Origin: a virus
Lineage: Duplodnaviria > Heunggongvirae > Uroviricota > Caudoviricetes
Strand: one strand, 5' to 3'
IMG/VR virus record: IMGVR_UViG_2737471839_000006
Span: 1-12,249 of that record
DNA length: 12,249 nucleotides
The position numbers were made by a program, and so were the translations under genes. Under the pieces are notes generated by a model that saw nothing but the letters and a program-made list of their open reading frames with translations, did not search any database and was not told the DNA's origin. Of this stretch, positions 1-12,249 are shown one piece after another. Position 1 is the first letter of the stretch. Every line of letters begins with the position of its first letter.

Positions 1-109
1 CACCACCCCGTCAGTAGCTGAACAGGAGGGACAGCTGATAGAAACAGAAGCCACTGGAGCACCTCAAAAACACCATCATACACTAAATCAGTAAGTTGGC
101 AGCATCACC
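1..109 (-). mobile_element. IS1 terminal segment, including the terminal inverted repeat; the element continues beyond the window start and includes the first codons of insA on the minus strand
   Basis: Positions 1..109 are the exact reverse complement of the IS1 left end as I recall it (GGTGATGCTGCCAACTTACTGATTTAGTGTATGATGG...GACGGGGTGGTG). The terminal repeat ends at 109 (..CAGCATCACC), where the sequence turns abruptly AT-rich. Recognised from memory, not searched. Confidence 0.85.
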
Positions 110-337
110 CGGGGAACTATAACAATGTTTCTAGCTTGGTGCTGTATGAATTAGTGAATTAGTAGGGAATATATCCACACATTGATTAACACAAAAATAT
201 TTCAGATATTAAATGTAACTCAAAGGATGAGTAATAATGGTTGTGTAGCGTATAACAGGATGCTGAGGTAGTATTAAACAATGAATAAATCTGATTGACA
301 AGCACCAGATAATACTGCGGGTCAATCATTAGACATG

Positions 338-372
338 AACGCCACTAGTTACTGAGAGTAACTAATGGCGTT
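338..372. repeat. Near-perfect 16-bp inverted repeat (AACGCCACTAGTTACT-gag-AGTAACTAATGGCGTT, 15/16), a possible 3' stem-loop or protein-binding site downstream of the HD gene
   Basis: Read directly; one C/A mismatch. It sits 43-77 bp downstream of the minus-strand stop at 415..417. A second AT-rich hairpin (GATGTTTT-ttt-AAAACATC, 387..405) lies between the stop and this palindrome. Confidence 0.4.
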
Positions 373-414
373 GTGTTTATAGTTAAGATGTTTTTTTAAA
401 ACATCAGGGGGGCT

Positions 415-1962
415 CTACTTGTCTTTTTTAATATGTTCAATCTCATCATTAAGACATTTATCTATTTTTTTTATTAACACATTAATTTCTTCGGTGTTTT
501 GGAGTTGAGTTGTCTTAGAAACAAAAACTCGAATAAAGAATTTAACATAGTGATAGGGTTGAAGTACATCGTTATACTTACATAAATCATTTATTGTATA
601 CTTGCCGCCTGTTTCTTTTTTTATTATTTTAGCTTGACTTGTATCGATATCTTTAAAGTTATCTTCAATCTGAAAATCAAGAACCCATTCATCTCCTTTT
701 AAATTATCCTCAATGATTTTGTTGATTTTCTTAGATATATTTTGTTTATATTCTTTGTATCTGTTGTCGGAAATGTTAACATTAGAAAACGTGTGTTTTT
801 TTTCATATATTTTTTTCCAAACATTTCTATCAACAATATCTTGAATTATAGCTTGAGAATTTTTATCTAATGTGTTTTTAAGAGTGTTTTCTAAAAACGT
901 TTTGTCTGGGTTTTCACGATAAAAGTGTTTGATGGACTCAATGAGAGTGTTTTTAGATTTTAAAGAGACAACATCATCAGTTTTTTTTCTAGAACACGCT
1001 TTGTTAAGCATCGCAGATAGTGCACGATTGGTCTTATGAAAATAAACTTGACTATAAAGCCCACTTCTTGCATTGGCAAATTCTAGTATTGAATCCATAC
1101 CACTTTCTTTATATGCCAGGTAAACACTATTTTCAACTTTCACAGGAATAAATGACATTAATAATCGTCCATAATCATAAATCCCATATTTAACGCCGGA
1201 GAAGTAGCTATCTCTAAGTAGGTAGTCCATTCTGTCCGCATCTATAGGTGAAGATGATATGATTGAACCTAATAAAGGATATACATTTACTCCCTCAATG
1301 TTATTTTTAAAATCATATCTTTTATCAACAATTTTTATAATGCTTTCTGGATTAATAGCCGCTATGTTTTCTTTATAGACATCGTCGTCATTTGATTTAT
1401 CTTGGGCTTCATTTTTTAATTCTTCAATAATTTCTTTAATAAAAATACATGATACTTGTTCGTGGGTTAACTTGTCATTATCACTTAAAGATATAATCTT
1501 ATCGTATTGTTTATTTCCTTCAGTTTTGCATTTTTCTTTGAAATCTTTTACGGATATTGCAAAACTATCGAATTGGTGGGCAAGTGGGCCATGCCCAACA
1601 TCGTGTAACAATGCTGCAATACGTAACTCCTGTATAAGACTTGAAGGCATTTTTTTTATATCTAAATATAGATCAATGCCCATATTTTTTCGGTCATAAA
1701 TTAATGCATTCAAATTTATATTTTTCAAAATCTCATACGATAAATGCATTACACCGACAGAGTGTTCAAAGCGAGAGTGCATTGCAGAAGGAAATACTTT
1801 ATATAGAAACGTGTTCTGCCTGATATCTCGTAGTCGTTGGAATAAAGGATGGTCAATTATCTTTTTTTCTAGCTTAGTTATTCGAATCACTCCATGTATG
1901 GGATCTAAAAACTTCCCCAGAAGTAAGTCTTCAAAGTTCTCAAGTTTGTTTTTGTTTGTCAT
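415..1962 (-). CDS. SAMHD1-like HD-domain dNTP triphosphohydrolase (515 aa)
   Basis: Uninterrupted 515-aa ORF with ATG start at 1962..1960 preceded by AAGGAAAG. HD-superfamily motifs are all present: DPIHG (aa 21-24), RFEHS (aa 64-68), LLHDVGHGPLAH (aa 118-129), THEQ (aa 166-169), DADRMDYLLRD (aa 241-251). Spacing and flanking residues parallel human SAMHD1 as I recall it. Very AT-rich with K/N/I-rich codon usage, unlike the flanking prophage genes. Confidence 0.85.
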   Translation of the reverse strand: MTNKNKLENFEDLLLGKFLDPIHGVIRITKLEKKIIDHPLFQRLRDIRQNTFLYKVFPSAMHSRFEHSVGVMHLSYEILKNINLNALIYDRKNMGIDLYLDIKKMPSSLIQELRIAALLHDVGHGPLAHQFDSFAISVKDFKEKCKTEGNKQYDKIISLSDNDKLTHEQVSCIFIKEIIEELKNEAQDKSNDDDVYKENIAAINPESIIKIVDKRYDFKNNIEGVNVYPLLGSIISSSPIDADRMDYLLRDSYFSGVKYGIYDYGRLLMSFIPVKVENSVYLAYKESGMDSILEFANARSGLYSQVYFHKTNRALSAMLNKACSRKKTDDVVSLKSKNTLIESIKHFYRENPDKTFLENTLKNTLDKNSQAIIQDIVDRNVWKKIYEKKHTFSNVNISDNRYKEYKQNISKKINKIIEDNLKGDEWVLDFQIEDNFKDIDTSQAKIIKKETGGKYTINDLCKYNDVLQPYHYVKFFIRVFVSKTTQLQNTEEINVLIKKIDKCLNDEIEHIKKDK

Positions 1963-2023
1963 GAGGCTTTCCTTTTGCTGTAGTTATAATACGAAATTTA
2001 AATAGTAATGATGTTTATAGTTT

Positions 2024-2052
2024 CAATGTGTTATCTAATGGTTAACACATTG
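2024..2052. promoter_or_regulatory. Perfect 10-bp inverted repeat CAATGTGTTA-N9-TAACACATTG, a putative operator or promoter element 62-90 bp upstream of the HD gene start
   Basis: Read directly. On the minus strand the right arm ends in TTGAAA, which could serve as a -35 element. The 10-mer TTCAATGTGT (2022..2031) recurs at 3873..3882 upstream of the second island gene. Confidence 0.45.
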
Positions 2053-2321
2053 TGATGTAGCATATCAATATGGATTCATATGTTCAATTGGTCTGTGGAG
2101 TTTAGTTATGAATAAGATTGATTCTGGTAATACTTTGTAGTTTAAGCTAGAGGCGGGATTCGTGATGTTCAAATCAGTATGTAATGGAGGTTGTGCATTA
2201 GTACTTGCTGCTGGAAATTAAAAATAAAGTTGCAAGTAATCGACGTTTTCCGAGAGGAGGATGTAAGCATCGCTGACCAAAAAGTATCAACGATGCCTGT
2301 TTTGTTTTAACTACAAATTAA

Positions 2322-3824
2322 TTAAATTGCATCTGCAAACTCTGTGATTTTTCGCTCAAGTATGATTGATGAGTTGCTGTTGTCGATTTTTTTATTTTCA
2401 TGATTACGAATAGCCAATGACTCATTAAAGTCTTTTGCGACTGCTGTCTCAATAAATTCAATTTCTGAATCAGAGTGTTTTTTAACAGCTTCTTTGATCT
2501 CATCCAGAGTAACATAGAAAAACTCTTTTCTACGATTTACAAGATTGACTCTCTTTTTATCGAAGACATCATGTAGTTTTTTTTCTAATGATGGAGCGTC
2601 CTCCGAATAAATCATGGCATGCACATCAAAAATAAAAGGAACAGATGCATCACCAAGCTCATTTACACGGTCTTGTGGATCAAGACGTCGTGTCATGCCT
2701 ATTTTATAAACATTCTCCCCAAAAGAACCTATGTTCGAAATAATATAAACATGACCTTGTTTGGTTTGTTGTGCCATGGATAATGCTCTTTGATGCTTTG
2801 ATTCAGCCTGCGACAAACTCTGTTCTAGTTCGGCAATGCGATTTTCGAGGCGCTGCTTCATGTCACCAGTAACTTTTTCCATTTCCTTTCTTGCAGCTTC
2901 AATTGCTTTTTTATAACGGCGCTCTTCTGCCTCTGCGTCTTGCATGGCCTTTTCTATTTCTCGTTGTGCACGCTCCTCCTCTCTCATTTGTGCCCTTATT
3001 TCTGCCTGTTCTTCTTTTTCTTTCTGTTTTTGCTCACGATATTCATGGGTAAGCCACAACTCCTCAAGTTTTTTATTAAGGTATTTAGTATTTATATATA
3101 TGTGATTTTGCTCGTTTAGTTTATTTATGGCCTCAAATGCCTTTGTGATGCGTTCTTCCATTTTAGTGATATTTTTCCACGTGCAATTACTAATTGCAGC
3201 ATCACATTCATTATTAAATGCTCTAGTAGTTAGCCTAATATTTCTGTCTGTCATTTTTTTACCCTCTGCTCGAGAGCCTTCAACAGTCCATTGGGTTGTG
3301 CAATATACTGCACCAGAGTGGGTTTTATCCCGCAGCATTAATTTCTGTTCATCCCTGATGGATTTTATTTTGTTTTTAAATTGCTCTGAATCTTCAAAAT
3401 TAAAATGAGGTTCGTAAAATCCTAGTTCGGCTAGTTCAACATCTTCTGAATAAATAGAAATTTGCTTTACTAGCTTATCATATATTTCTTTCTTCTCTTT
3501 ATAAGTTCTTCTTAGTTCTTGGATTTGTTTATTGATACCATCCATTTTTTCAATGGTGTTTGTTAGTTCATTATTGGCATTTTCTTTTACTTTTTGGGAC
3601 TCTTCTTTTATAATGGAGCATTCTTGCTCTGTTTTCTCAATAAGCTTCTTACATTCCTCTTCCACATTAAAATAATCTGCAAAGCGAGATTTGTATTCTT
3701 CATTTTTTTGATTGCTATCACTTAATTCTAATTGTATTTTTTTGATGCGTTTGATTGCAGCTATATATAGAACAAGAACAACCAATAAAAATATGATTGC
3801 AAGTAATAGTGGAGTTTGAGTCAT
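2322..3824 (-). CDS. Membrane-anchored coiled-coil protein with C-terminal T5orf172/MUG113-type (GIY-YIG superfamily) domain; middle region resembles DUF4041 (500 aa)
   Basis: 500-aa ORF with ATG at 3824..3822 and GGAA upstream. N-terminal hydrophobic helix (LLLAIIFLLVVLVLYIAAI, aa 5-24). Long E/K/Q/R-rich heptad-like segments (aa ~30-130 and ~250-350). C-terminal block GHVYIISNIGSFGENVYKIGMTRR...PFIFDVHAMIYSEDAPSLEKKLHDVFDKKRV...RKEFFYV (aa ~357-440; nt ~2505..2756) matches the T5orf172 signature as I recall it. AT-rich like the HD gene. Confidence 0.85.
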   Translation of the reverse strand: MTQTPLLLAIIFLLVVLVLYIAAIKRIKKIQLELSDSNQKNEEYKSRFADYFNVEEECKKLIEKTEQECSIIKEESQKVKENANNELTNTIEKMDGINKQIQELRRTYKEKKEIYDKLVKQISIYSEDVELAELGFYEPHFNFEDSEQFKNKIKSIRDEQKLMLRDKTHSGAVYCTTQWTVEGSRAEGKKMTDRNIRLTTRAFNNECDAAISNCTWKNITKMEERITKAFEAINKLNEQNHIYINTKYLNKKLEELWLTHEYREQKQKEKEEQAEIRAQMREEERAQREIEKAMQDAEAEERRYKKAIEAARKEMEKVTGDMKQRLENRIAELEQSLSQAESKHQRALSMAQQTKQGHVYIISNIGSFGENVYKIGMTRRLDPQDRVNELGDASVPFIFDVHAMIYSEDAPSLEKKLHDVFDKKRVNLVNRRKEFFYVTLDEIKEAVKKHSDSEIEFIETAVAKDFNESLAIRNHENKKIDNSNSSIILERKITEFADAI

Positions 3825-3872
3825 TCGTGCTATTCCTTACGGACAATTTAAGACGTTTTGTATTAAATCCTG

Positions 3873-3882
3873 TTCAATGTGT
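3873..3882. promoter_or_regulatory. Second copy of the 10-mer TTCAATGTGT, 49-58 bp upstream of the start of the 500-aa gene
   Basis: Read directly; identical to 2022..2031. On the minus strand it reads ACACATTGAAC, again ending in a -35-like TTGAAC. Confidence 0.35.
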
Positions 3883-4152
3883 ATGCGGGTGATTGCTACC
3901 GCTTACAATCTTCATAATTATCAGTTAGATAGACTCGCTAGTAAATAATTTCATTTTTTGCAATATTCTTATTGAATATTTCAATTTATGAAATGAACTC
4001 TTTATCCTTTCAAGGCGAAAGGTTTCTTCTTCGGAAATATTTGCTCTCGTGTGACGTATAAAGGCCTTTGATTTTTAAAAAACAGTAGGGAATAATATAG
4101 TTACTGTCGGCCTGAACACCCGGCGGTGGGGTTGCGCTAAACGGGGACGTTT

Positions 4153-4254
4153 ATGCGCACATACAATCTAAACTCTCTTCTCCCTTCACAGATGCAGAAA
4201 TGCACCTGCGATTTTTTGCATCCAACGTTTGACCTCTGCGGAGGTGAAGCGTGA
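4153..4254 (+). CDS. ylcH: Small 33-aa ORF, YlcH-like, overlapping the ybcN start by 4 nt
   Basis: ATG at 4153 translates to [33 protein letters not shown] and stops within GTGA, which also supplies the ybcN start. Size and position match my recollection of ylcH in DLP12. Too short for the ORF track; hand-translated. Confidence 0.4.
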
Positions 4255-4706
4255 ACCTACCACAAGATGGCATCAAATTACATCGCGGCAACTTCACCGC
4301 TATCGGCCAGCAGATCCAGCCTTATCTGGAGGACGGAAAATGCTTTCGCATGGTGCTTAAACCGTGGCGTGAGAAACGCAGTCTTTCCCAGAATGCACTC
4401 AGCCACATGTGGTACAGCGAAATCAGTGAATACCTTATCAGCAGGGGGAAATCGTTCGCTACCGCAGCATGGGTAAAAGAAGCTCTCAAACACACATACC
4501 TCGGTTATGAAACCAAAGAACTGGTTGATGTCGTAACCGGTGAAATCACCACTATCCAGTCGTTACGCCATACCTCCGATCTTGATGCCGGAGAGATGTA
4601 TGTCTTCCTGTGTAAGGTTGAAGCCTGGGCGATGAATATTGGCTGCCACCTGACTATTCCGCAGAGCTGCGAGTTCCAGCTGCTGCGCGACAAGCAGGAG
4701 GCGTAA
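4251..4706 (+). CDS. ybcN: NinB-family protein (YbcN-like), 151 aa, GTG start
   Basis: ORF track 4251..4706. GGAGGTG sits 5 nt upstream of the GTG. The sequence [19 protein letters not shown]...[18 protein letters not shown] matches the DLP12 YbcN/NinB family as I recall it (lambda NinB has the analogous RSLDQN block). Confidence 0.9.
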
Positions 4707-4876
4707 TGGCTACACCGCTTATTCGTGTCATGAACGGACACATCTACAGAGTACCAAATCGTCGTAAGCGTAAACCTGAGCTGAAGCCATCCGAAATACC
4801 AACACTGCTCGGATATACCGCCAGCCTGGTTGATAAAAAATGGTTGCGACTGGCAGCAAGGAGGAATCATGGCTGA
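4706..4876 (+). CDS. ninE: NinE-family small protein (56 aa)
   Basis: ATG overlaps the ybcN stop (TAATG). Hand translation gives [56 protein letters not shown]. Below the ORF-track size cutoff. Confidence 0.7.
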   Translation: MATPLIRVMNGHIYRVPNRRKRKPELKPSEIPTLLGYTASLVDKKWLRLAARRNHG

Positions 4877-5159
4877 TTTGAGAAAAGCAGCGCGTGGTCG
4901 GGAATGCCAGGTAAGAATCCCTGGCGTATGTAATGGCAACCCTGAAACGTCTGTACTGGCACATATCCGGCTGACTGGATTGTGCGGCACCGGTACCAAA
5001 CCGCCAGACCTGATTGCCACCATTGCATGTTCTGCCTGCCACGACGAAATCGACCGCCGCACACATTTTGTCGATGCCGCATATGCAAAAGAATGCGCGC
5101 TGGAAGGTATGGCGAGAACGCAGGTTATCTGGCTGAAAGAGGGGGTAATCAAGGCGTGA
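4869..5159 (+). CDS. ybcO: YbcO-like putative nuclease (Cys-rich, 96 aa from ATG at 4869)
   Basis: Track ORF 4830..5159 begins at a TTG; the ATG at 4869 is preceded by AGGAGGAA and gives 96 aa ([23 protein letters not shown]...), the size I recall for DLP12 YbcO. Conserved Cys/His residues (C..C..C..H) are present. Confidence 0.75.
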
Positions 5160-5518
5160 ATACCTACAACATCACATTACCCTGGCCGCCTAGCAATAAC
5201 CGCTACTACCGGCATAATCGCGGGCGCACACACATCAGCGCAGAAGGGCAGGCATACCGCGATAACGTCGCCCGAATCATTAAAAACGCAATGCTGGATA
5301 TCGGCCTGGCTATTCCTGTAAAAATCCGCATTGAGTGCCACATGCCGGATCGCCGTCGCCGTGACCTGGATAATCTGCAAAAAGCCGCTTTTGACGCACT
5401 CACCAAAGCAGGTTTCTGGCTGGATGATGTTCAGGTCGTTGATTACCGTGTTGTGAAGATGCCCGTTACCAAAGGTGGGAAGCTGGAGTTGACCATCACC
5501 GAACTGGGGAATGAATGA
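5156..5518 (+). CDS. rusA: RusA Holliday-junction resolvase (120 aa, GTG start overlapping the ybcO stop)
   Basis: Track ORF 4982..5518 is a 5'-extended frame; GTG at 5156 (within GCGTGAAT) gives [23 protein letters not shown]...[25 protein letters not shown], which I recognise as RusA. Confidence 0.9.
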
Positions 5519-5655
5519 TGTTTGAGTCTTATATGGCAGAACGTCTTCGCCACCGCTGGATGCGCCTGCGCTTATATCGTTTCCCCGGTTCTGTTTTGAC
5601 CGATTACCGAATACTGAAGAGTTACGCCAAAACCCTGACAGGAGCAGGAGTATGA
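5515..5655 (+). CDS. ylcG: YlcG-like small protein (46 aa)
   Basis: ATGATG start overlaps the rusA stop (AATGAATGATG). Hand translation gives [46 protein letters not shown]. Below the track cutoff. Confidence 0.55.
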
Positions 5656-5740
5656 AGTCAGAGATAACAACCAACTAATACTGTTTTGTTGATTTTTGCT
5701 TGTAATTGGCGTTCTGGTCTGAGTTTTGTGGAGTAAGTTG

Positions 5741-6124
5741 ATGCGTGATATTCAGATGGTTCTTGAGCGTTGGGGAGCGTGGGCGGCTAATAATCATGAA
5801 GATGTGACCTGGTCGTCCATTGCCGCCGGTTTTAAGGGATTAATTACTTCAAAAGTAAAATCTCGCCCGCAATGTTGTGACGATGACGCGATGATCATTT
5901 GCGGGTGCATGGCCCGTCTGAAAAAGAACAACAGCGATTTGCACGATTTATTAGTAGATTATTATGTAGTCGGTATGACATTCATGTCACTGGCAGGTAA
6001 GCATTGCTGCTCTGATGGTTATATCGGGAAAAGGTTACAGAAGGCTGAGGGCATAATTGAAGGGATGTTAATGGCATTAGATATCCGGTTAGAGATGGAT
6101 ATCGTTGTTAATAACTCTAATTAA
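5741..6124 (+). CDS. quuD: Late-gene antiterminator Q (QuuD-like, 127 aa)
   Basis: Track ORF 5726..6124 starts at an upstream TTG; the ATG at 5741 gives 127 aa ([24 protein letters not shown]...) with Cys clusters ([18 protein letters not shown]) typical of Q-family antiterminators. Position after rusA/ylcG and before the lysis genes is as expected. Confidence 0.85.
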
Positions 6125-6157
6125 TATGCCAATTGTTTACTAAAAATTATTAAAAAT

Positions 6158-6175
6158 GGGGCGTTGAGACGCCCC
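6158..6175 (-). terminator. GC hairpin (GGGGCGT-tgag-ACGCCCC) followed on the minus strand by ATTTTTAATAATTTTT; candidate intrinsic terminator for minus-strand (nmpC) transcription
   Basis: Read directly. The T-rich tract is only on the minus-strand 3' side, 34 nt beyond the quuD stop. Confidence 0.4.
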
Positions 6176-6265
6176 CAAAAATAAAGGGTAATATATAACA
6201 GAAGGTTTATATAGTTAGAAGCAAGGTTGTGCTTCTAAAGGAAGTGGCTTGAGGGAGCCACTTAT

Positions 6266-6304
6266 ATGTTGGGGAGGCAACGCCTCCCGCAACATATCTT
6301 TTTC
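6266..6304 (+). terminator. tR'-like intrinsic terminator candidate (GGGAGGC-aac-GCCTCCC within an extended imperfect stem, then ATCTTTTTCG)
   Basis: Read directly. Lies about 140 nt downstream of quuD, where lambdoid phages place pR'/qut/tR'. Two further hairpins (6218..6237, 6244..6261) sit just upstream. Confidence 0.4.
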
Positions 6305-6313
6305 GTAATCAGA

Positions 6314-7411
6314 TTAGAACTGGTAAACCAGACCTACAGCAACGATGTCATCAGTGCTTACACCGAGTGCTTTAGTGAAGTCATTTTTGTCAAGCAGGTT
6401 GATTTTGTAATCAACGAAAGTAGACATATTTTTGTTGAAGTAATAGGTTGCACCTACATCAACATATTTGACTAAGTCCTGATCGCCCCATACTCCAAGA
6501 TCCTTACCTTTAGATTGCAGGTAAGCAACGGACGGACGCAGACCGAAATCGAACTGATATTGTGCAACAGCTTCGAAGTTTTGGGCTTTATTAGCAACGA
6601 AGTGATCAGCAAATACAGTCATATTCTGGGTTTCAGAATAGGTAGTGGCCAGGTAAATGTTGTTAGCATCATATTTCAGACCTGCGGCCCAAACTTCTGC
6701 ATTTTTACCGGAAGCAAATACTTCAGGAAGAACTTTCCCTGCATTAACTTGAGTGTCGGTACGATCAGATTTCGCATAAGTTGCACCGATACCGAATCCT
6801 TCGTATTCATAGGTAGCAGAGAAACCGAAGCCATCACCGTTACCTTCAGTGTAGTTATCGAAATCGCTACGATCGTTTTTGCCTTGGTACTGAGCAGCAA
6901 AGTTCAGACCATCAACCAGACCAAAGAAGTCGTTGTTACGATAGGTTGCAACACCAGTGGTGCGACCAGTCATGAACACATCTGTTTGGGTCCAGGTATC
7001 GCCACCGAATTCTGGCAGAACGTCAGTCCACGCACCGATGTCGTATGCTACACCGTAGTTACGGCCGTAATCGATTGAGCCGTAGTCACCGAATTTCAGG
7101 CCTGCAAATGCAAGACGGGTTTTGTCTTTGGAGGAACCTTGAGATTCAGCGCGGTTGCCTTTGAATTCATATTCCCACTGACCGAAACCAGTCAGTTGAT
7201 CGTTGATTTGGGTTTCACCTTTGAAGCCAAGACGGGCATAAGTAGTATCACCATCATCTGCATCATTAGAGGAGAAGTAGTGCTTAGCATTAACTTTCCC
7301 GTACAGATCCAGCTTGTTACTGTCTTTATTATAAATTTCAGCTGCCTGAGCAGACATCGCCATCAGTACTGATGCAGCTACAGCAGAAATTGCCACTGTT
7401 AATTTTTTCAT
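6314..7411 (-). CDS. nmpC: Outer-membrane general porin NmpC/OmpD-like, intact (365 aa with signal peptide)
   Basis: ORF track. N-terminal signal peptide [23 protein letters not shown] then AEIYNKD...; C-terminal ...AVGLVYQF, the typical porin terminal Phe. ATG is preceded by AAGGG. Recognised as the DLP12 porin gene, here without an IS interruption. Confidence 0.9.
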
Positions 7412-7840
7412 CGTGAGCCCTTTTTTTTGAACTATTATTAAAAAATGATGTCACTGCGCGATAAATATTCATCTAATCAATGTGATTATTTCAAGATGTA
7501 AGTTTTGGTTTCTCGTTTGATTTGTGAAGTAGATCTCTATTTTTATCTGAACTTTTTTCTATCGAATCCTATTCATAGCTCTTGGCTGAATAAAAATAAA
7601 TCTATTAGCCAATTTATATTAACGACTGTTATTTATAAGTGCTCTATAATTTGAAGGTTCAATTTAAATCGGCTAAAAATAACACTGGAAATTATTTGTT
7701 GGTTATTTGTTGAGGTTTTCTTATGTATTTGTGGTGGTGTTTTGAACACTCGGTAGCATTCTCGCAAATATCATTTAGTGGTTTACGTACGTAAAAAATT
7801 GGTTATGCTGTTAAGAGTGGTTACTTCGTCACACAGCTTA

Positions 7841-7873
7841 AACCCGCCGTCGAGCGGGTTTTTCCATTTTTTG
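7841..7873 (+). terminator. Intrinsic terminator candidate about 110 bp upstream of the holin gene (AACCCGC-cgtcga-GCGGGTT then TTTCCATTTTTTG)
   Basis: Read directly; the T-tract is on the plus strand only. Confidence 0.55.
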
Positions 7874-7984
7874 AGTCTCGATATTAGCTGATAACCCAAT
7901 ACCTGAGTTATTCACTGACTCCGAGTCTGTTACGTTTCGTAGTATTCCCTCAATTTACACCCGCTTTGTCTGCGAGGTGGGGTT

Positions 7985-8200
7985 ATGAAATCCATGGATA
8001 AGTTAACAACGGGTGTCGCCTATGGCACCTCAGCAGGTAGTGCCGGGTACTGGTTTTTACAGCTGCTAGATAAAGTCACGCCCTCACAGTGGGCGGCAAT
8101 TGGAGTGCTGGGTAGCCTGGTATTTGGCCTGCTGACGTACCTGACAAACCTTTATTTCAAGATTAAAGAAGACAAGCGTAAGGCTGCACGGGGAGAGTAA
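7985..8200 (+). CDS. essD: Class II pinholin, phage 21 S21-like (71 aa) with dual-start motif MKSM
   Basis: ORF track. [71 protein letters not shown] is near-identical to S21 as I recall it; two TM segments; Met1/Met4 dual start. Confidence 0.9.
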
Positions 8201-8204
8201 TTCA

Positions 8205-8549
8205 ATGACTCAAAACTATGAACTGATTGTGAAAGGGATCCGCAATTTTGAGAATAAAGTTACGGTAACTTTAGCGTTACGGGACAAAAAACGCTTTGAC
8301 GGTGAAATTTTTGACCTGGACATCTCGCTGGACCGTGTTGAAGGTGCCGCGCTGGAGTTTTATGAGGCAGCAGCCAGAAGGAGCATCAGACAGGTCTTCC
8401 TGGATGTTGCTGCCGGGTTATGTGAAGGGGATGAGCTGTCGCCGGAAAAGCGCCCCATAATTTTAGAGGCGCAGAATGTGTGGATAACCTACAAAGGAAA
8501 GCTACCGGGAAGAATTACTGGTTCTCTGAAGACTCCGCCGAAATGGTAA
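8205..8549 (+). CDS. Hypothetical protein (114 aa) inserted between holin and endolysin; no family recognised
   Basis: ORF track. ATG at 8205 lies 5 nt after the holin stop, with GGAGAG 7 nt upstream, so it is positioned for co-expression with late genes. No motif I can assign. Confidence 0.6.
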   Translation: MTQNYELIVKGIRNFENKVTVTLALRDKKRFDGEIFDLDISLDRVEGAALEFYEAAARRSIRQVFLDVAAGLCEGDELSPEKRPIILEAQNVWITYKGKLPGRITGSLKTPPKW

Positions 8550-8787
8550 TTTCACCAGCATATTTTTCTTCCAGTAATACCGCCAGCCACTTGAAAGAAT
8601 TTTGTTGTTGCTGGGACCATTTGGGGTTGAGTGATTCAAGCTGGAGCGATGCCAGTGTTGGTTGCATTTGTTCCTTGGGAATTGAGAATGCCAGATATGA
8701 AAATGCGACAGTAAGGGCATTTACATCATCCCGAAGCCTGGAAATGCAGTCGAGCAACTCCTGTAGAGAAATGGTGCTATTGTCCAT
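8515..8787 (-). CDS. Hypothetical protein (~90 aa), convergent with and overlapping the 3' end of the 8205..8549 gene
   Basis: Track ORF 8515..8793 starts at a TTG; the in-frame ATG at 8787 is preceded by GAGAGGA at 6-nt spacing on the minus strand. Ordinary Leu/Gln-rich composition; no recognisable family. Confidence 0.5.
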   Translation of the reverse strand: MDNSTISLQELLDCISRLRDDVNALTVAFSYLAFSIPKEQMQPTLASLQLESLNPKWSQQQQNSFKWLAVLLEEKYAGEITISAESSENQ

Positions 8788-8892
8788 AAACAATCCTCTC
8801 TATTGTATTTAACTATTCCTTGCCTGATTCAACAGGCCGGGACAGATAAACATATCCAGGGTTCAGAAACCGATAAATCCTGATAAATATCC

Positions 8893-9426
8893 ATGAACGC
8901 AAAAATCAGATACGGCCTGTCGGCTGCCGTTCTGGCACTGATTGCCGTCGGTGCGCCTGCGCCTGATATTCTCGACCAGTTTCTGGATGAAAAAGAAGGT
9001 AACCACACAACGGCATACCGCGATGGTTCCGGCATCTGGACCATCTGTCGGGGTGCCACGGTGGTGGATGGAAAACCCGTTTTTCCCGGTATGAAACTGT
9101 CGAAGGAAAAATGCGACCAGGTTAACGCCATTGAACGGGATAAGGCGCTGGCATGGGTGGAGCGCAATATTAAAGTGCCACTGACCGAACCACAGAAAGC
9201 GGGTATCGCGTCATTTTGTCCCTATAACATTGGCCCCGGTAAGTGTTTCCCGTCGACGTTTTATAAGCGGCTGAATGCCGGTGATCGTAAAGGTGCATGC
9301 GAGGCGATTCGCTGGTGGATAAAAGATGGTGGGCGCGATTGCCGCATACGTTCAAATAACTGCTATGGACAGGTTATTCGTCGTGACCAGGAAAGCGCAT
9401 TAGCCTGTTGGGGGATAGATCAGTGA
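8893..9426 (+). CDS. SAR endolysin (T4-lysozyme-like muramidase, 177 aa)
   Basis: ORF track. N-terminal weakly hydrophobic Gly/Ala-rich segment ([17 protein letters not shown]), typical of a signal-anchor-release domain. The following E-x8-D-x5-T triad ([16 protein letters not shown]) has T4-lysozyme spacing. Confidence 0.9.
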
Positions 9427-9881
9427 GCAGAGTCGCCGCGATTATTTATGCTCTGGTTATCTGCATCATCGTCTGCCTGTCATGGGCTGTTAATCATTAC
9501 CGTGATAACGCAATCGCCTACAAAGAGCAGCGCGATAACAAGGCCAGTGAACTGGAGAAGGCGAACGCCACCATCGCTGACATGCGGAAGCGTCAACGTG
9601 ATGTAGCAGAACTCGACGCAAGATACACAAAGGAGCTTGCTGATGCTAACGCGACTATCGAAAGTCTCCGTGCTGATGTTTCTGCTGGGCGTAAGCGCCT
9701 GCAAGTCGCCGCCACCTGTGCAAAGTCAACGACCGGAGCCAGCGGCATGGGCGATGGAGAAAGCCCAGGACTTACAGCAGATGCTGAACTCAATTATTAC
9801 CGTCTCCGAAGTGGAATCGACAAGATAACCGCGCAGGTTAACTACCTGCAGGAATACATCAGGACGCAATGCCTGAAATAA
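9423..9881 (+). CDS. Rz: i-spanin Rz (GTG start overlapping the endolysin stop)
   Basis: Track ORF 9408..9881; GTG at 9423 (within CAGTGAGC) gives (M)[33 protein letters not shown]..., closely resembling lambda Rz: N-terminal TM anchor, coiled-coil periplasmic domain. Confidence 0.85.
9637..9828 (+). CDS. Rz1: o-spanin Rz1 lipoprotein, embedded in the +1 frame of Rz
   Basis: Track ORF 9637..9828. Lipobox-like VSAC followed by a proline-rich stretch ([13 protein letters not shown]), entirely inside Rz in another frame as in lambda. Confidence 0.75.
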
Positions 9882-9912
9882 TTTTTTTGCAAATCACAAA
9901 GTCCATTTAATG

Positions 9913-9936
9913 AGCCTCGCGATGCGGGGCTTTTTG
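9913..9936 (+). terminator. Intrinsic terminator after the lysis cassette (AGCCTCGC-gat-GCGGGGCT with one G-U pair, then TTTTT)
   Basis: Read directly, about 30 nt downstream of the Rz stop. Confidence 0.5.
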
Positions 9937-9942
9937 CAATAA

Positions 9943-9967
9943 ATGCGTACCGCAACGCATGTTTTTT
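9943..9967 (+). terminator. Second tandem intrinsic terminator (ATGCGT-accgca-ACGCAT then GTTTTTT)
   Basis: Read directly, immediately after the first. Confidence 0.45.
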
Positions 9968-10082
9968 ACACCGAACCTGCCCCTTTGGAATGGGCCTTTG
10001 AGGATACCAGTTAGTGCTGGCGAGCCTCGGTGGGCTGGTTTCCTGTGCGGCAAAGGTTCATTTCAAAGAGTAGGTACACGCT

Positions 10083-10580
10083 ATGAAATCATTAACCCTC
10101 TTCAATCAACCAATTCGTATCGGTGAAGATGGCATGATCTGCCTCACTGACATGTGGAAAGCTAGTGGTAAAAGTGAATCTGAATCGCCGTACCACTATC
10201 TGCGAAACAAGCAGACCAAAGAGTTCTTAGCCGAGCTGGAGAAAAACCACGAATCTGTGGTTTTTACTGAGCGCGGTGTACACGGTGGAACATATGGCGG
10301 GAAGTTTGTTGCTTACGATTATGCGGCTTGGTTAAACCCCGGGTTCAAGTACGCGGCCTATAAAGTCCTCGATGACTACTTCACCGGAGAACTTCAGCAT
10401 CGCAACAGCTTAAGTGCGCAGCTCAACATGAAATGTCATGAGTTTGACCAGAAGAAAGACATGGCGAGCTTCTGCGGACAAGGGCTGGCAGCATGGCGCT
10501 ATACGAAGCCAGTGTTGGTCGCTGAGATTAACTCCCTGGCTAACCAGCTGCAGATTACGATCCCCGGGCTTCCGGGATGA
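10083..10580 (+). CDS. KilA-N domain protein (165 aa)
   Basis: ORF track. The N-terminal region (..FTERGVHGGTYGGKFVAYDYAAWLNPGFKYAAYKVLDDYF) has the aromatic/AxWLxPxF pattern I associate with KilA-N DNA-binding domains. Confidence 0.75.
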   Translation: MKSLTLFNQPIRIGEDGMICLTDMWKASGKSESESPYHYLRNKQTKEFLAELEKNHESVVFTERGVHGGTYGGKFVAYDYAAWLNPGFKYAAYKVLDDYFTGELQHRNSLSAQLNMKCHEFDQKKDMASFCGQGLAAWRYTKPVLVAEINSLANQLQITIPGLPG

Positions 10581-10852
10581 GTGATCGTGTCATTGAATGC
10601 GCCTCCAGAGCGGGGCGCGACTTCTCAGAGTTCATGAAAGGCGAGAAGGGCATGATGGAAGCATTGGCCTCGGTGGATGAGTTTGGCGAGCAGCTGCGCC
10701 TCAACGGCTGTGTCAATCATCACTTTGTTAGCTACATGATGCGGAACTCGATCATGCAGGCATTCATGGACATGGCAAAAGCCGAGAGGAAAGAAGAGCG
10801 CCGGCATAAGCGAGCGGAAGCAAAAGCAAAAGCAAAAGCAAAAGTGAAGTAG
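10577..10852 (+). CDS. Hypothetical protein (91 aa) with basic C-terminal (AK)n tail; start overlaps the KilA-N stop
   Basis: ORF track; ATGA overlap at 10577..10580 suggests translational coupling. Confidence 0.6.
   Translation: MSDRVIECASRAGRDFSEFMKGEKGMMEALASVDEFGEQLRLNGCVNHHFVSYMMRNSIMQAFMDMAKAERKEERRHKRAEAKAKAKAKVK
10820..10843 (+). repeat. (GCAAAA)x4 perfect tandem hexanucleotide repeat encoding AKAKAKAK
   Basis: Read directly, within the 3' end of the 10577..10852 ORF. Confidence 0.8.
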
Positions 10853-11334
10853 CCATTACAAAGCCCATTTACGGGTGGGCTTGATAATGAAACCGGAATT
10901 TATTCTGGGCCACCAGTTAACGGCAGTACCACGAAACAACCCAAGCCAGTAAGTGGGGAAATAACACTGGCAGCCACTGAAAGATGAAGCTCCTGCCTTA
11001 AGGCAAAAAAGATTCTTTGTGGTGGCGGACTGATGGAAAGACATCGGTTATTGCAGAGGCCATTCAATGAGTGGTCTCGACAATGGCTTATACCCTACAC
11101 GGGATAACTTAACTGATATCCCTTTTAACGGATAAAGGTATTCAAGCCTGACACATCATGCGCTGTATCGTCGCCGTATTCCCGCATTAACCATGACCGT
11201 AGCCCGACGGGGAATTCCTTCTGCGTGAGTGTGCGGGAATAATCAAAAACGATGCACACCGGGGTTACCGGGTACACATATTTCATCATGCCAGCGAGTC
11301 CGGTTCTGGCGCGGAAGAAACCGGACGTTATGAT

Positions 11335-11760
11335 TTAGTGCGGAAATATTTGTGTAGTGTTCTGAATGTTCTCAGTAAATAGTAATGAATTATCAAAGGT
11401 ATAGTAATACCTTTTGTTTTCGTGGATATTTGTAATCCATCTGAAAACCCCTGCTGTAGCAAGATTTTTCCTGTATTCGTAAAATGATAACTCTCCTGAT
11501 TTGAATCCTTTTAAGGTGGCTTCTATAAGGCATTTATTTTTTGAAAATCTTACATTTACAACCTTACCCTGTCCTTTTATTAAAACCGTATTATCGTTTT
11601 CAAGAACAAGATGAATATTCTCTGTGGCTAAATAGTAAATGTAATGTGAGACATTGTGACGTTTTAGTTCAGAATAAAACCAGTGATAGTTTAAATTATT
11701 TCGCACTTTATCGAATATTTGTTTAAAAATGGCAACCTGAGCCATTGTAGTACCTTCCAT
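11335..11760 (-). CDS. ybcV: YbcV-like protein (DUF1398 family); ATG at 11745 would give 136 aa
   Basis: ORF track; AT-rich. [43 protein letters not shown]... recalled as the DLP12 YbcV family. A GTCCGGTT..AACCGGAC hairpin lies just downstream (~11293..11321). Confidence 0.75.
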
Positions 11761-11802
11761 GTGATATGATGGGGCGTAGTCTGCACGATTATCTAAATTG
11801 CT

Positions 11803-12036
11803 TCAATCTGGTCTGACCTGTTTTCTGAGCAATTCAGTAATGTCACTCTTTTCTTTGTTTGCTTCAGGCGAAACTCTTTTTTCTGAGCACAGTCTCCGGC
11901 GGCAGGCTTCAATGACCCAGGCTGAGAAATTCCCAGACCCTTTTTGCTCAAGAGCGATGTTAATTTGTTCAATCATTTGGTTAGGAAAGCGGATGTTGCG
12001 GGTTGTTGTTCTGCGGGTTCTGTTCTTCGTTGACAT
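11803..12036 (-). CDS. Small basic protein, YlcI/DUF3950-like (77 aa as called; start uncertain)
   Basis: ORF track. MSTKNRTRRTTTRNIRFPNQMIEQINIALEQKGSGNFSAWVIEACRRRL... has an Arg-rich N-terminus and a ribbon-helix-helix-like core, and sits immediately upstream of cos as in DLP12/lambda. Confidence 0.6.
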   Translation of the reverse strand: MSTKNRTRRTTTRNIRFPNQMIEQINIALEQKGSGNFSAWVIEACRRRLCSEKRVSPEANKEKSDITELLRKQVRPD

Positions 12037-12149
12037 GAGGTTGTCCCGTATTCAGTGTCGCTGATTTGTATTGTCTGAAGTTGTTTTTACGTTAAGTTGA
12101 TGCAGATCAATTAATACGATACCTGCGTCATAATTGATTATTTGACGTG

Positions 12150-12249
12150 GTTTGATGGCCTCCACGCACGTTGTGATATGTAGATGATAATCATTATCAC
12201 TTTACGGGTCCTTTCCGGTTATCCGACAGGTTACGGGGCGGCGACCTCG
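12150..12249 (+). other. Lambda-type cos site: cosQ-like region and cosN, with the 12-nt cohesive-end sequence GGGCGGCGACCT at 12236..12247
   Basis: 12065..12235 matches the lambda right-end sequence as I recall it (...GACGTGGTTTGATGGCCTCCACGCACGTTGTGATATGTAGATGATAATCATTATCACTTTACGGGTCCTTTCCGG[T/G]ATCCGACAGGTTACG), followed by GGGCGGCGACCTCG. Confidence 0.8.

Follow-up and report, generated by a model that had tools for sequence, protein, structure and literature searches.

SAMHD1, as found in human, mouse, C. elegans and fungi, and bacterial EF1143 are tetramer-type, allosterically activated HD-domain deoxynucleoside triphosphate (dNTP) triphosphohydrolases. EF1143 is described as a tetramer like SAMHD1, and the hexameric Dgt-type enzymes are said to be "often mistakenly referred to as SAMHD1-like" (PMC12042053). 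Defence by HD-domain dGTPases through dGTP depletion has been reported for Sp-dGTPase (Tal et al., 2022), for CloA of the Clover system, which is switched on by dTTP, and for Vdg of Vibrio cholerae. Those defence dNTPases that could be placed, CloA and Vdg from their structures and Sp-dGTPase from what its authors describe, are members of the Dgt-like clade, which resembles human SAMHD1 only remotely. The present analysis concerns a 12,249-nucleotide stretch of viral DNA, hereafter the window (IMG/VR record IMGVR_UViG_2737471839_000006, positions 1 to 12,249), and within it a gene for an HD-domain protein of 515 amino acids (aa), hereafter the HD gene and the HD protein, which an initial annotation had read as a prophage-borne, SAMHD1-like dNTPase. 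We propose that the HD gene is a mobile single-gene anti-phage defence acting by dNTP depletion, a full model to which we assign a probability of roughly 0.55, and that it probably represents a new phage-defence family. Built on the predicted fold and the genomic context, the case appears plausible. That an HD dNTPase can work by depleting nucleotides is already known, and it is a defence role for the SAMHD1/EF1143 clade in bacteria that would be new.

Family, fold and active site

The motifs by which the HD protein had been read as a SAMHD1-like dNTPase are all present (DPIHG at residues 20-24, RFEHS at 64-68, HDVGHGPLAH at 120-129 and DADRMDYLLRD at 241-251), together with an additional THEQ motif at residues 166-169. 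Pfam recognises a generic HD domain only (E=8e-7), with HD_assoc_2 below threshold, and the RefSeq label is just "HD domain-containing protein". A sequence search against PDB chains returned Aquifex Aq_1910 (2hek; 5e-30), Enterococcus EF1143 (2o6i; 1e-26) and human SAMHD1 (4e-26), query residues 19-430 aligning with residues 119-502 of the human protein and the mouse SAMHD1 alignment extending to query residue 485. An alignment of 77 homologues (A1) was the input for an AlphaFold2 prediction (mean pLDDT 89.8, pTM 0.90), and its profile, when compared with PDB, retrieved SAMHD1-group chains alone at E<=1e-3. Other HD families, including PPX/GppA, cyclic-nucleotide phosphodiesterases and HD-GYP, all scored below 10. 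Foldseek aligned the model with the SAMHD1 catalytic core over ~510-525 columns at a TM score of 0.62-0.63, and the full-length fold, including the C-terminal lobe, is nearer to the SAMHD1/EF1143 group than to Dgt-type or other HD enzymes. Aq_1910 and BT4208, to neither of which the PDB entry descriptions assign an activity, are among the closest structural matches, and the top matches in a viral structure library are giant-virus HD phosphohydrolases. A structure aligning to some non-dNTPase HD family would have told against the initial annotation; because Foldseek and the A1 profile both point to the SAMHD1 group, the closest fold is instead the one it had suggested. The same annotation had taken the K/N-rich C-terminal part (residues 330-515) for an added, possibly regulatory extension. 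This region is indeed K/N-rich; it is modelled confidently as helices and beta-sheet and corresponds to the SAMHD1 C-lobe, with residues that are invariant in A1 (Y348, D353, F356, R379, W382, E387, K437, D438, K449 and R478), and the idea of a C-terminal regulatory extension is therefore rejected. The earlier reading of the protein thus stands for family, fold and motifs, and falls for the C-terminal extension. Every comparison of sequence and of predicted structure that could be made assigns the HD protein to the SAMHD1/EF1143 clade. Further, the ratio of nonsynonymous to synonymous substitution (dN/dS) against homologues is 0.08-0.27, so the gene is under purifying selection.

Residue equivalences were read from the HMMER alignment to SAMHD1, in which SAMHD1 residue numbers are obtained by adding 18 to the chain index. 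As in SAMHD1 and EF1143, the metal-binding set H...HD...D is kept (H67 for SAMHD1 H167, H120 for H206, D121 for D207 and D243 for D311), and it is invariant in 77 of 77 homologues. The triphosphohydrolase residues of catalysis and substrate binding are kept as well, R64 corresponding to SAMHD1 R164, H124 to H210, H129 to H215, D132 to D218, R244 to K312, Y247 to Y315, D251 to D319, R299 to R366, Y307 to Y374, H309 to H376 and K310 to K377. Through a common THEQxS motif H167 corresponds to SAMHD1 H233, an equivalence read by eye, the HMMER gaps being misplaced in that variable stretch. All the catalytic residues named are invariant among the 77 homologues with the exception of D132 (D in 71, E in 6). 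In the substrate pocket, the alignment of the 77 homologues places N50 where SAMHD1 has L150, and F or Y at position 308 where it has Q375. It is quite likely that the HD protein has the predicted dNTPase activity.

Allosteric site 1, the site for GTP or dGTP in SAMHD1, is intact and is predicted to bind its ligand; D37 is equivalent to SAMHD1 D137, Q42 to Q142, R45 to R145 and R379 to R451, of which Q42, R45 and R379 are invariant in the 77 homologues, position 37 being occupied by D in 48, N in 21 and G in 6. Allosteric site 2 is kept in part, with V56, F57, D263 and R266 present in the SAMHD1 alignment, the last two at the positions of SAMHD1 D330 and R333. The protein differs from SAMHD1 proper in having no SAM domain (none was found in the Pfam search), in starting 19 residues before the equivalent of SAMHD1 residue 119, and in a variable insert at residues ~141-228. 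Non-mammalian SAMHD1s are also described as being without a SAM domain and as conserving allosteric site 2 little (PMC12042053), so that allosteric site 2 is not a defining trait of the wider clade.

A mobile single-gene cassette

A further difference from SAMHD1 and EF1143 is that the HD gene is carried on a mobile cassette, found in prophages and defence islands. Its site in the window is the ren-ninB cargo slot of an E. coli lambdoid prophage, next to the gene for SNIPE, an established defence nuclease. In complete E. coli genomes the pair formed by the HD gene and SNIPE is flanked by replication gene P and a ren-like gene on one side and by ybcN-ninE-ybcO-rusA-Q on the other, and lies on the strand opposite to these phage genes. 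The prophage location and the low-GC island that had been suggested initially both hold, the HD gene being found within the lambdoid prophage of complete E. coli genomes, and window 110-3824 having 30-35% GC against ~49-53% in the adjacent nin region. Pairwise comparison of loci showed that the HD gene came in by a replacement-type insertion, ~2.18 kb (window ~81-2259) having displaced a 168-bp stretch between ren and SNIPE; within the insertion the coding sequence is preceded by 297 bp and followed by ~330 bp, and homology with loci that have SNIPE alone picks up again at window 2260 (Table 1).

Both flanks travel with the gene. Upstream, ~250 nt of non-coding DNA accompanies it in other genera, where BLAST found 70-76% identity over 123-261 nt in Serratia, Enterobacter, Proteus and two metagenomic contigs. 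Besides the palindrome listed in Table 1, this 5' part has a promoter-like AT-rich sequence and an ATCAAT...ATTGAT repeat; the palindrome and the repeat may be operator sites, and the region as a whole an operator or promoter. Possibly, the conserved ~250 nt serve specifically for regulation and hold the enzyme back as long as the cell is uninfected. As for an RNA element, Rfam gave no match to the 5' region, RNAalifold on five sequences, a number with little power, gave -10 kcal/mol with an unfavourable covariation term, and folding of the single sequence gave a z-score of -1.4 and no convincing structure, so that a structured RNA, riboswitch or antitoxin is unsupported. A conserved small open reading frame (ORF) was likewise rejected, none being common to the 5' regions of the loci compared. 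Downstream, 90-150 nt of non-coding DNA moves with the gene across genera, and the second of two hairpins, with ~30 nt beyond it, is conserved in all eight cassette copies examined (the window and seven other loci); it has no clean U-tract and is probably a terminator. Integron attC-like ends were considered and rejected, as the 3' hairpin, judged by eye, misfits attC core sites. No discrete mobile-element ends were found, the shared flanks stopping at different points in different contexts.

The wider family comprises 7,861 matches at E<=1e-5. Homologues of 64-77% identity occur in Proteus, Serratia, Enterobacter, Klebsiella sp., Raoultella, Yersinia and Dickeya, in at least ten other contexts and at a site that differs in almost every host, and the gene has 28-32% GC in hosts whose flanks reach 59% GC. 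In P. mirabilis and P. penneri the homologue lies at the icd integration site, and the annotated P. mirabilis icd locus also holds the candidate system PDC-M45 and a CBASS of type I, with its cyclase matched at 3e-142 and its 2TM effector at 1e-88. In P. mirabilis (L003 1-10100), several partial icd (Iso_dh) fragments of this locus separate blocks of cargo, namely CBASS, PDC-M45, an mSLOG/DUF4326 gene and the HD homologue, and their repetition between blocks suggests serial integrations. In P2-like prophages of Y. enterocolitica and Y. ruckeri the homologue is flanked by the tail genes gpS and gpV and lies on the strand opposite to them; in another P2-like prophage, on a metagenomic contig, it is beside gpS at the contig end. 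Elsewhere it adjoins an OLD/AriA/GajA-like ATPase and a protein with a weak NACHT match, lies in a prophage remnant with UmuDC and AbiGi, adjoins HigBA and an Hcp-Tlde1 pair (Enterobacter), or adjoins S-type bacteriocin and immunity genes (Klebsiella sp.). Among the ~11 contexts inspected at >=64% identity, a small sample with no statistical background model, four are prophage cargo slots (the lambdoid prophage of the window and the three P2-like prophages), and a known or candidate defence gene lies within a few kb in four (SNIPE; CBASS with PDC-M45; the OLD-like ATPase; AbiGi), which in a sample of this kind locates the HD protein near defence systems or on mobile elements.

No partner gene is common to the loci of the close homologues. 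Enterobacter (L048 10969-11424, minus strand) and Klebsiella sp. (L062 9811-10344, minus strand) each have a convergent ORF just downstream of the HD homologue, of 151 and 177 aa respectively, 34% identical to one another and with no Pfam match, which is found neither in the window nor in the other contexts. A conserved second gene downstream was rejected, the related ORF being limited to these two loci. Among 50,697 deposited phage records there was no homologue of >=60% identity, and full-length matches in the phage collection came down to ~43%-identical genes in four Klebsiella phage records only, two of them at record ends; on plasmids no homologue exceeded 44% identity. Given the lack of a close homologue in the phage records, a replication or anti-defence gene common in phages was rejected. 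Among Sp-dGTPase homologues, 53% of those at >=45% identity lie beside defence genes, against 10% of more distant ones (Tal et al., 2022), and the split in context between close and distant relatives of the HD protein may be analogous.

A model for defence by dNTP depletion

The model draws on the fold, the catalytic and allosteric-site-1 residues, the purifying selection, the single-gene mobility and the residence in prophages and defence islands described above. It proposes that a cassette of one gene, with its own promoter region and terminator hairpin, landed in the ren-ninB slot beside the unrelated SNIPE. The enzyme would be expressed from the prophage in the lysogen, from the strand opposite to the replication and nin genes, and would be largely inactive at resting dNTP levels. 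As an infecting phage raises the dNTP pool, which many lytic phages do, guanine nucleotides or dNTPs may fill the allosteric site, upon which an active oligomer would assemble, hydrolyse dNTPs to deoxynucleosides and triphosphate, and thereby starve phage DNA replication. We propose the dNTPase activity, with its specificity, as well as the oligomeric state, trigger and phage protection, on the strength of sequence, modelling and analogy. We suggest, more tentatively, that the SAMHD1/EF1143 clade itself may have been recruited as a mobile single-gene anti-phage module that keeps SAMHD1's guanine-nucleotide gate and senses the rise in dNTPs without a partner.

SAMHD1 and the defensive Dgt-like dGTPases offer the nearest analogies in mechanism, the latter as members of the same HD dNTPase superfamily encoded by a standalone gene near defence systems, and depletion of precursors is what would be predicted for the HD protein also. 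However, the HD protein lies outside the published defensive dGTPase family, for neither sequence models nor structural comparison place it in the Dgt clade; NCBIfam TIGR01353 scores 23.4 bits against a cut-off of 152.35. Clover has the nucleotidyltransferase CloB beside CloA, whereas the neighbours of the HD gene are SNIPE and IS1 or ren, with no nucleotidyltransferase. AvcID, a dCTP deaminase toxin with a small-RNA antitoxin, is likewise a nucleotide-depleting enzyme with a conserved upstream non-coding region, a likeness that serves as a lead only; it differs in that the Rfam, folding (z-score -1.4) and covariation analyses of the cassette's 5' region gave no evidence of a structured or antitoxin RNA. 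With SNIPE the HD gene shares the cargo slot, the strand, the low-GC island and the apparent status of single-gene cargo, but the SNIPE protein and its mechanism are unrelated.

Several points weigh against the model. The trigger is one that we purely infer. EF1143, the characterised bacterial member of the clade, is regarded as a dNTP-pool enzyme. At allosteric site 2 SAMHD1 N119 is replaced by L19, R352 by K285, K354 by S287 and N358 by S291, and with this site only partly conserved, regulation may differ from that of SAMHD1. The PADLOC dGTPase model PDLC02374 matches the HD protein at E=8.9e-4 with 16.7 bits and over residues 59-153 only, and beyond this marginal hit no PADLOC model is matched; the protein does match a PHROG, of unknown function. 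Three chromosomal sites of close homologues (Serratia, L064 and L066) have no recognisable defence neighbour. Further, a K. pneumoniae homologue of 44% identity, whose protein cluster has 3,530 member sequences, occupies an apparently ordinary chromosomal site between metabolic genes and a type VI secretion locus, from which it follows that the wider family is not dedicated to defence. Literature searches, which did not extend to Brenes & Laub 2025, found no paper on the HD protein, on its WP accessions or on a defence role of the SAMHD1/EF1143 clade; an antiviral role for EF1143 was likewise not found in the literature.

If the cassette defends, the defence repertoire would gain a second HD clade, which PADLOC, with its marginal match, and RefSeq naming both overlook. 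The enzyme would also be the nearest prokaryotic equivalent so far to an animal restriction factor, a bacterial model that can be aligned residue by residue with SAMHD1, including the GTP/dGTP allosteric site, and it could aid the study of how substrate-gated dNTPases distinguish infection from normal growth. In addition, the lambdoid ren-ninB slot would prove able to stack independent defence genes, SNIPE and the dNTPase, as a small island.

Alternative explanations

An alternate scenario, which we hold to be unlikely but which fares best among the alternatives, makes the HD protein a real dNTPase for pool housekeeping or fitness (mutation rate, stationary-phase survival or nucleoside salvage) that is carried as a generic prophage moron, in which case the finding would be an ordinary one. 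EF1143, Dgt and a Caulobacter Dgt are tied to dNTP homeostasis and cell-cycle control in passages of PMC11071499 and of the discussion of Tal et al., the 44%-identical Klebsiella relative sits at an apparently fixed chromosomal site among metabolic genes, and some close homologues are without defence neighbours. However, E. coli already has Dgt, the HD gene is present in only 0.4% of its genomes, and the close subfamily occupies differing sites, repeatedly prophage cargo slots or positions beside CBASS, an OLD-like ATPase, AbiGi or SNIPE. With a GC content of 28-32% against host flanks of up to 59%, this combination of rarity, shifting sites and low GC matches defence or accessory cargo and not a housekeeping gene.

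A second alternative, which we consider distinctly improbable, keeps the SAMHD1 fold but gives it another substrate or purpose, such as modified, chain-terminating or signalling nucleotides or nucleic-acid binding, so that it would serve the prophage, for example in counter-defence or superinfection control, without bulk dNTP depletion. It has in its favour that SAMHD1 takes nucleotide analogues and binds oligonucleotides at its allosteric sites, according to passages of PMC7854603, that two of the closest structural matches, Aq_1910 and BT4208, come without an assigned activity in their PDB entry descriptions, that the two substrate-pocket positions differ from SAMHD1 (N50 and F/Y308), and that residence in a prophage would fit a phage-serving function equally. 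However, the aligned triphosphohydrolase catalytic residues are all invariant, deposited phage genomes contain no homologue of >=60% identity, unlike what is typical of anti-defence genes, and the gene runs opposite to the flanking phage genes, as lysogen-expressed cargo does. That the gene is a passenger in decay or already inactive, serving no function at present, as IS1 directly beside the HD gene in the window's prophage and truncated variants of 333-461 aa in databases might suggest, is very hard to reconcile with an ORF intact in 21 of 21 complete genomes, the low dN/dS, the invariant catalytic residues and the conserved flanking regulatory sequence.

Independence from the adjacent SNIPE gene

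The gene next to the HD gene, of which the initial annotation's finding made no mention, encodes SNIPE (PD-lambda-1), with Pfam domains DUF4041, MUG113 and T5orf172 and the RefSeq name "SNIPE associated domain-containing protein"; 359 bp separate the two. SNIPE has been validated as a defence that needs one gene only; its product, a nuclease anchored in the membrane, cuts phage DNA as it is injected, and the main text of its description mentions no HD-domain neighbour (PMC13190303). Among 5,426 complete E. coli genomes, SNIPE is present in 131 and the HD gene in 21 (~0.4%); all 21 copies of the HD gene adjoin SNIPE, and 110 of the 131 SNIPE-bearing genomes are without the HD gene. A SNIPE-only locus that was inspected has the order ren, SNIPE, ybcN. 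All SNIPE loci inspected lie in this same ren-ybcN region. Of the fetched loci with 64-77% HD homologues, which belong to other genera, none has SNIPE nearby.

Five E. coli genomes carry a second HD allele, 90% identical in DNA and 85% in protein, beside a SNIPE gene that is 99.3% identical. In a comparison of L065 3001-4548 with window 415-1962, the alleles differ mainly in residues 121-240 and 301-420, identity being ~99-100% over residues 1-120 and in the adjacent SNIPE gene. A 90% allele beside a 99.3% SNIPE implies recombination between the two genes, and the second allele could be a recombination mosaic or could reflect diversifying surface regions. Further, some E. coli genomes have an intact HD ORF together with a SNIPE gene that IS1 or a frameshift has disrupted. 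Because of this distribution, the cassette boundaries, the allele mosaicism and the decay of SNIPE, the HD gene and SNIPE are separate modules. It would be possible to imagine the two as one system, the dNTPase backing up or regulating an injection-site nuclease, since they are neighbours that share a strand and a low-GC island, and since in E. coli the HD gene is never apart from SNIPE. However, SNIPE alone suffices for defence (PMC13190303), the HD gene is missing from most E. coli genomes that have SNIPE, it was inserted separately and with upstream sequence of its own, its homologues in other genera have no SNIPE neighbour, a divergent HD allele stands beside a near-identical SNIPE, and SNIPE may be disrupted where the HD gene is intact, so that a two-gene system is rejected as exceedingly improbable.

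Other features of the window

The features of the locus are collected in Table 1.

Table 1. Features of the window, and counterparts of its conserved 5' region in other loci.
Feature	Position	Strand	Remarks
IS1 end, outside the system	1-109	.	~30 bp within the left edge of the HD cassette
3' non-coding part of HD cassette	110-414	-	missing from SNIPE-only loci
Hairpin 2, CGCCATTAGTTAC-TCTCA-GTAACTAGTGGCG	340-370	-	13-bp stem, 45 nt past the HD stop codon
Hairpin 1	387-405	-	just past the HD stop codon
Coding sequence, SAMHD1/EF1143-type HD-domain protein, predicted dNTP triphosphohydrolase	415-1962	-	515 aa; ATG start
5' non-coding part of HD cassette	1963-2259	-	without counterpart in SNIPE-only loci
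Shine-Dalgarno sequence/ribosome-binding site AAGGAAAG	1967-1974	-	five bases 5' of the HD start codon
9-bp palindrome AATGTGTTA-N9-TAACACATT	2025-2051	-	in the 5' non-coding part
SNIPE/PD-lambda-1, membrane-anchored DUF4041 + GIY-YIG (T5orf172) nuclease	2322-3824	-	500 aa; PADLOC PD-Lambda-1 E=5e-198
Lambdoid nin region (ybcN/ninB-like, ninE, ybcO, rusA, Q antiterminator), right side of slot	4251-6124	+	from near-identical annotated genome segments
OmpC/NmpC-type porin gene, between Q antiterminator and lysis genes	6314-7411	-	365 aa; RefSeq "porin OmpC" in similar prophages
Counterpart of conserved 5' region	L045 8754-9000		
Counterpart of conserved 5' region	L057 6334-6593		
Counterpart of conserved 5' region	L054 6624-6880		

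The first 109 bases, which we take to be the terminal inverted repeat of an IS1 (GGTGATGCTGCCAACTTACTGATTTAGTG...), account for 9,645 matching E. coli records, and in cassette-bearing genomes without the IS1 insertion the match begins at window base 110. In other genomes it is SNIPE that is interrupted, by a different IS1 or by an IS5 copy. What remains of the window is a lambdoid late region of the usual kind, which includes a porin gene, a lysozyme and a KilA-N protein. Porins of the OmpC/NmpC type are a known sort of lambdoid prophage cargo. An ORF of 114 aa (8205-8549, plus strand) lies between the holin and lysozyme genes, and one of 141 aa (11335-11760, minus strand) occupies another patch of low GC (~35%) close to the right end.

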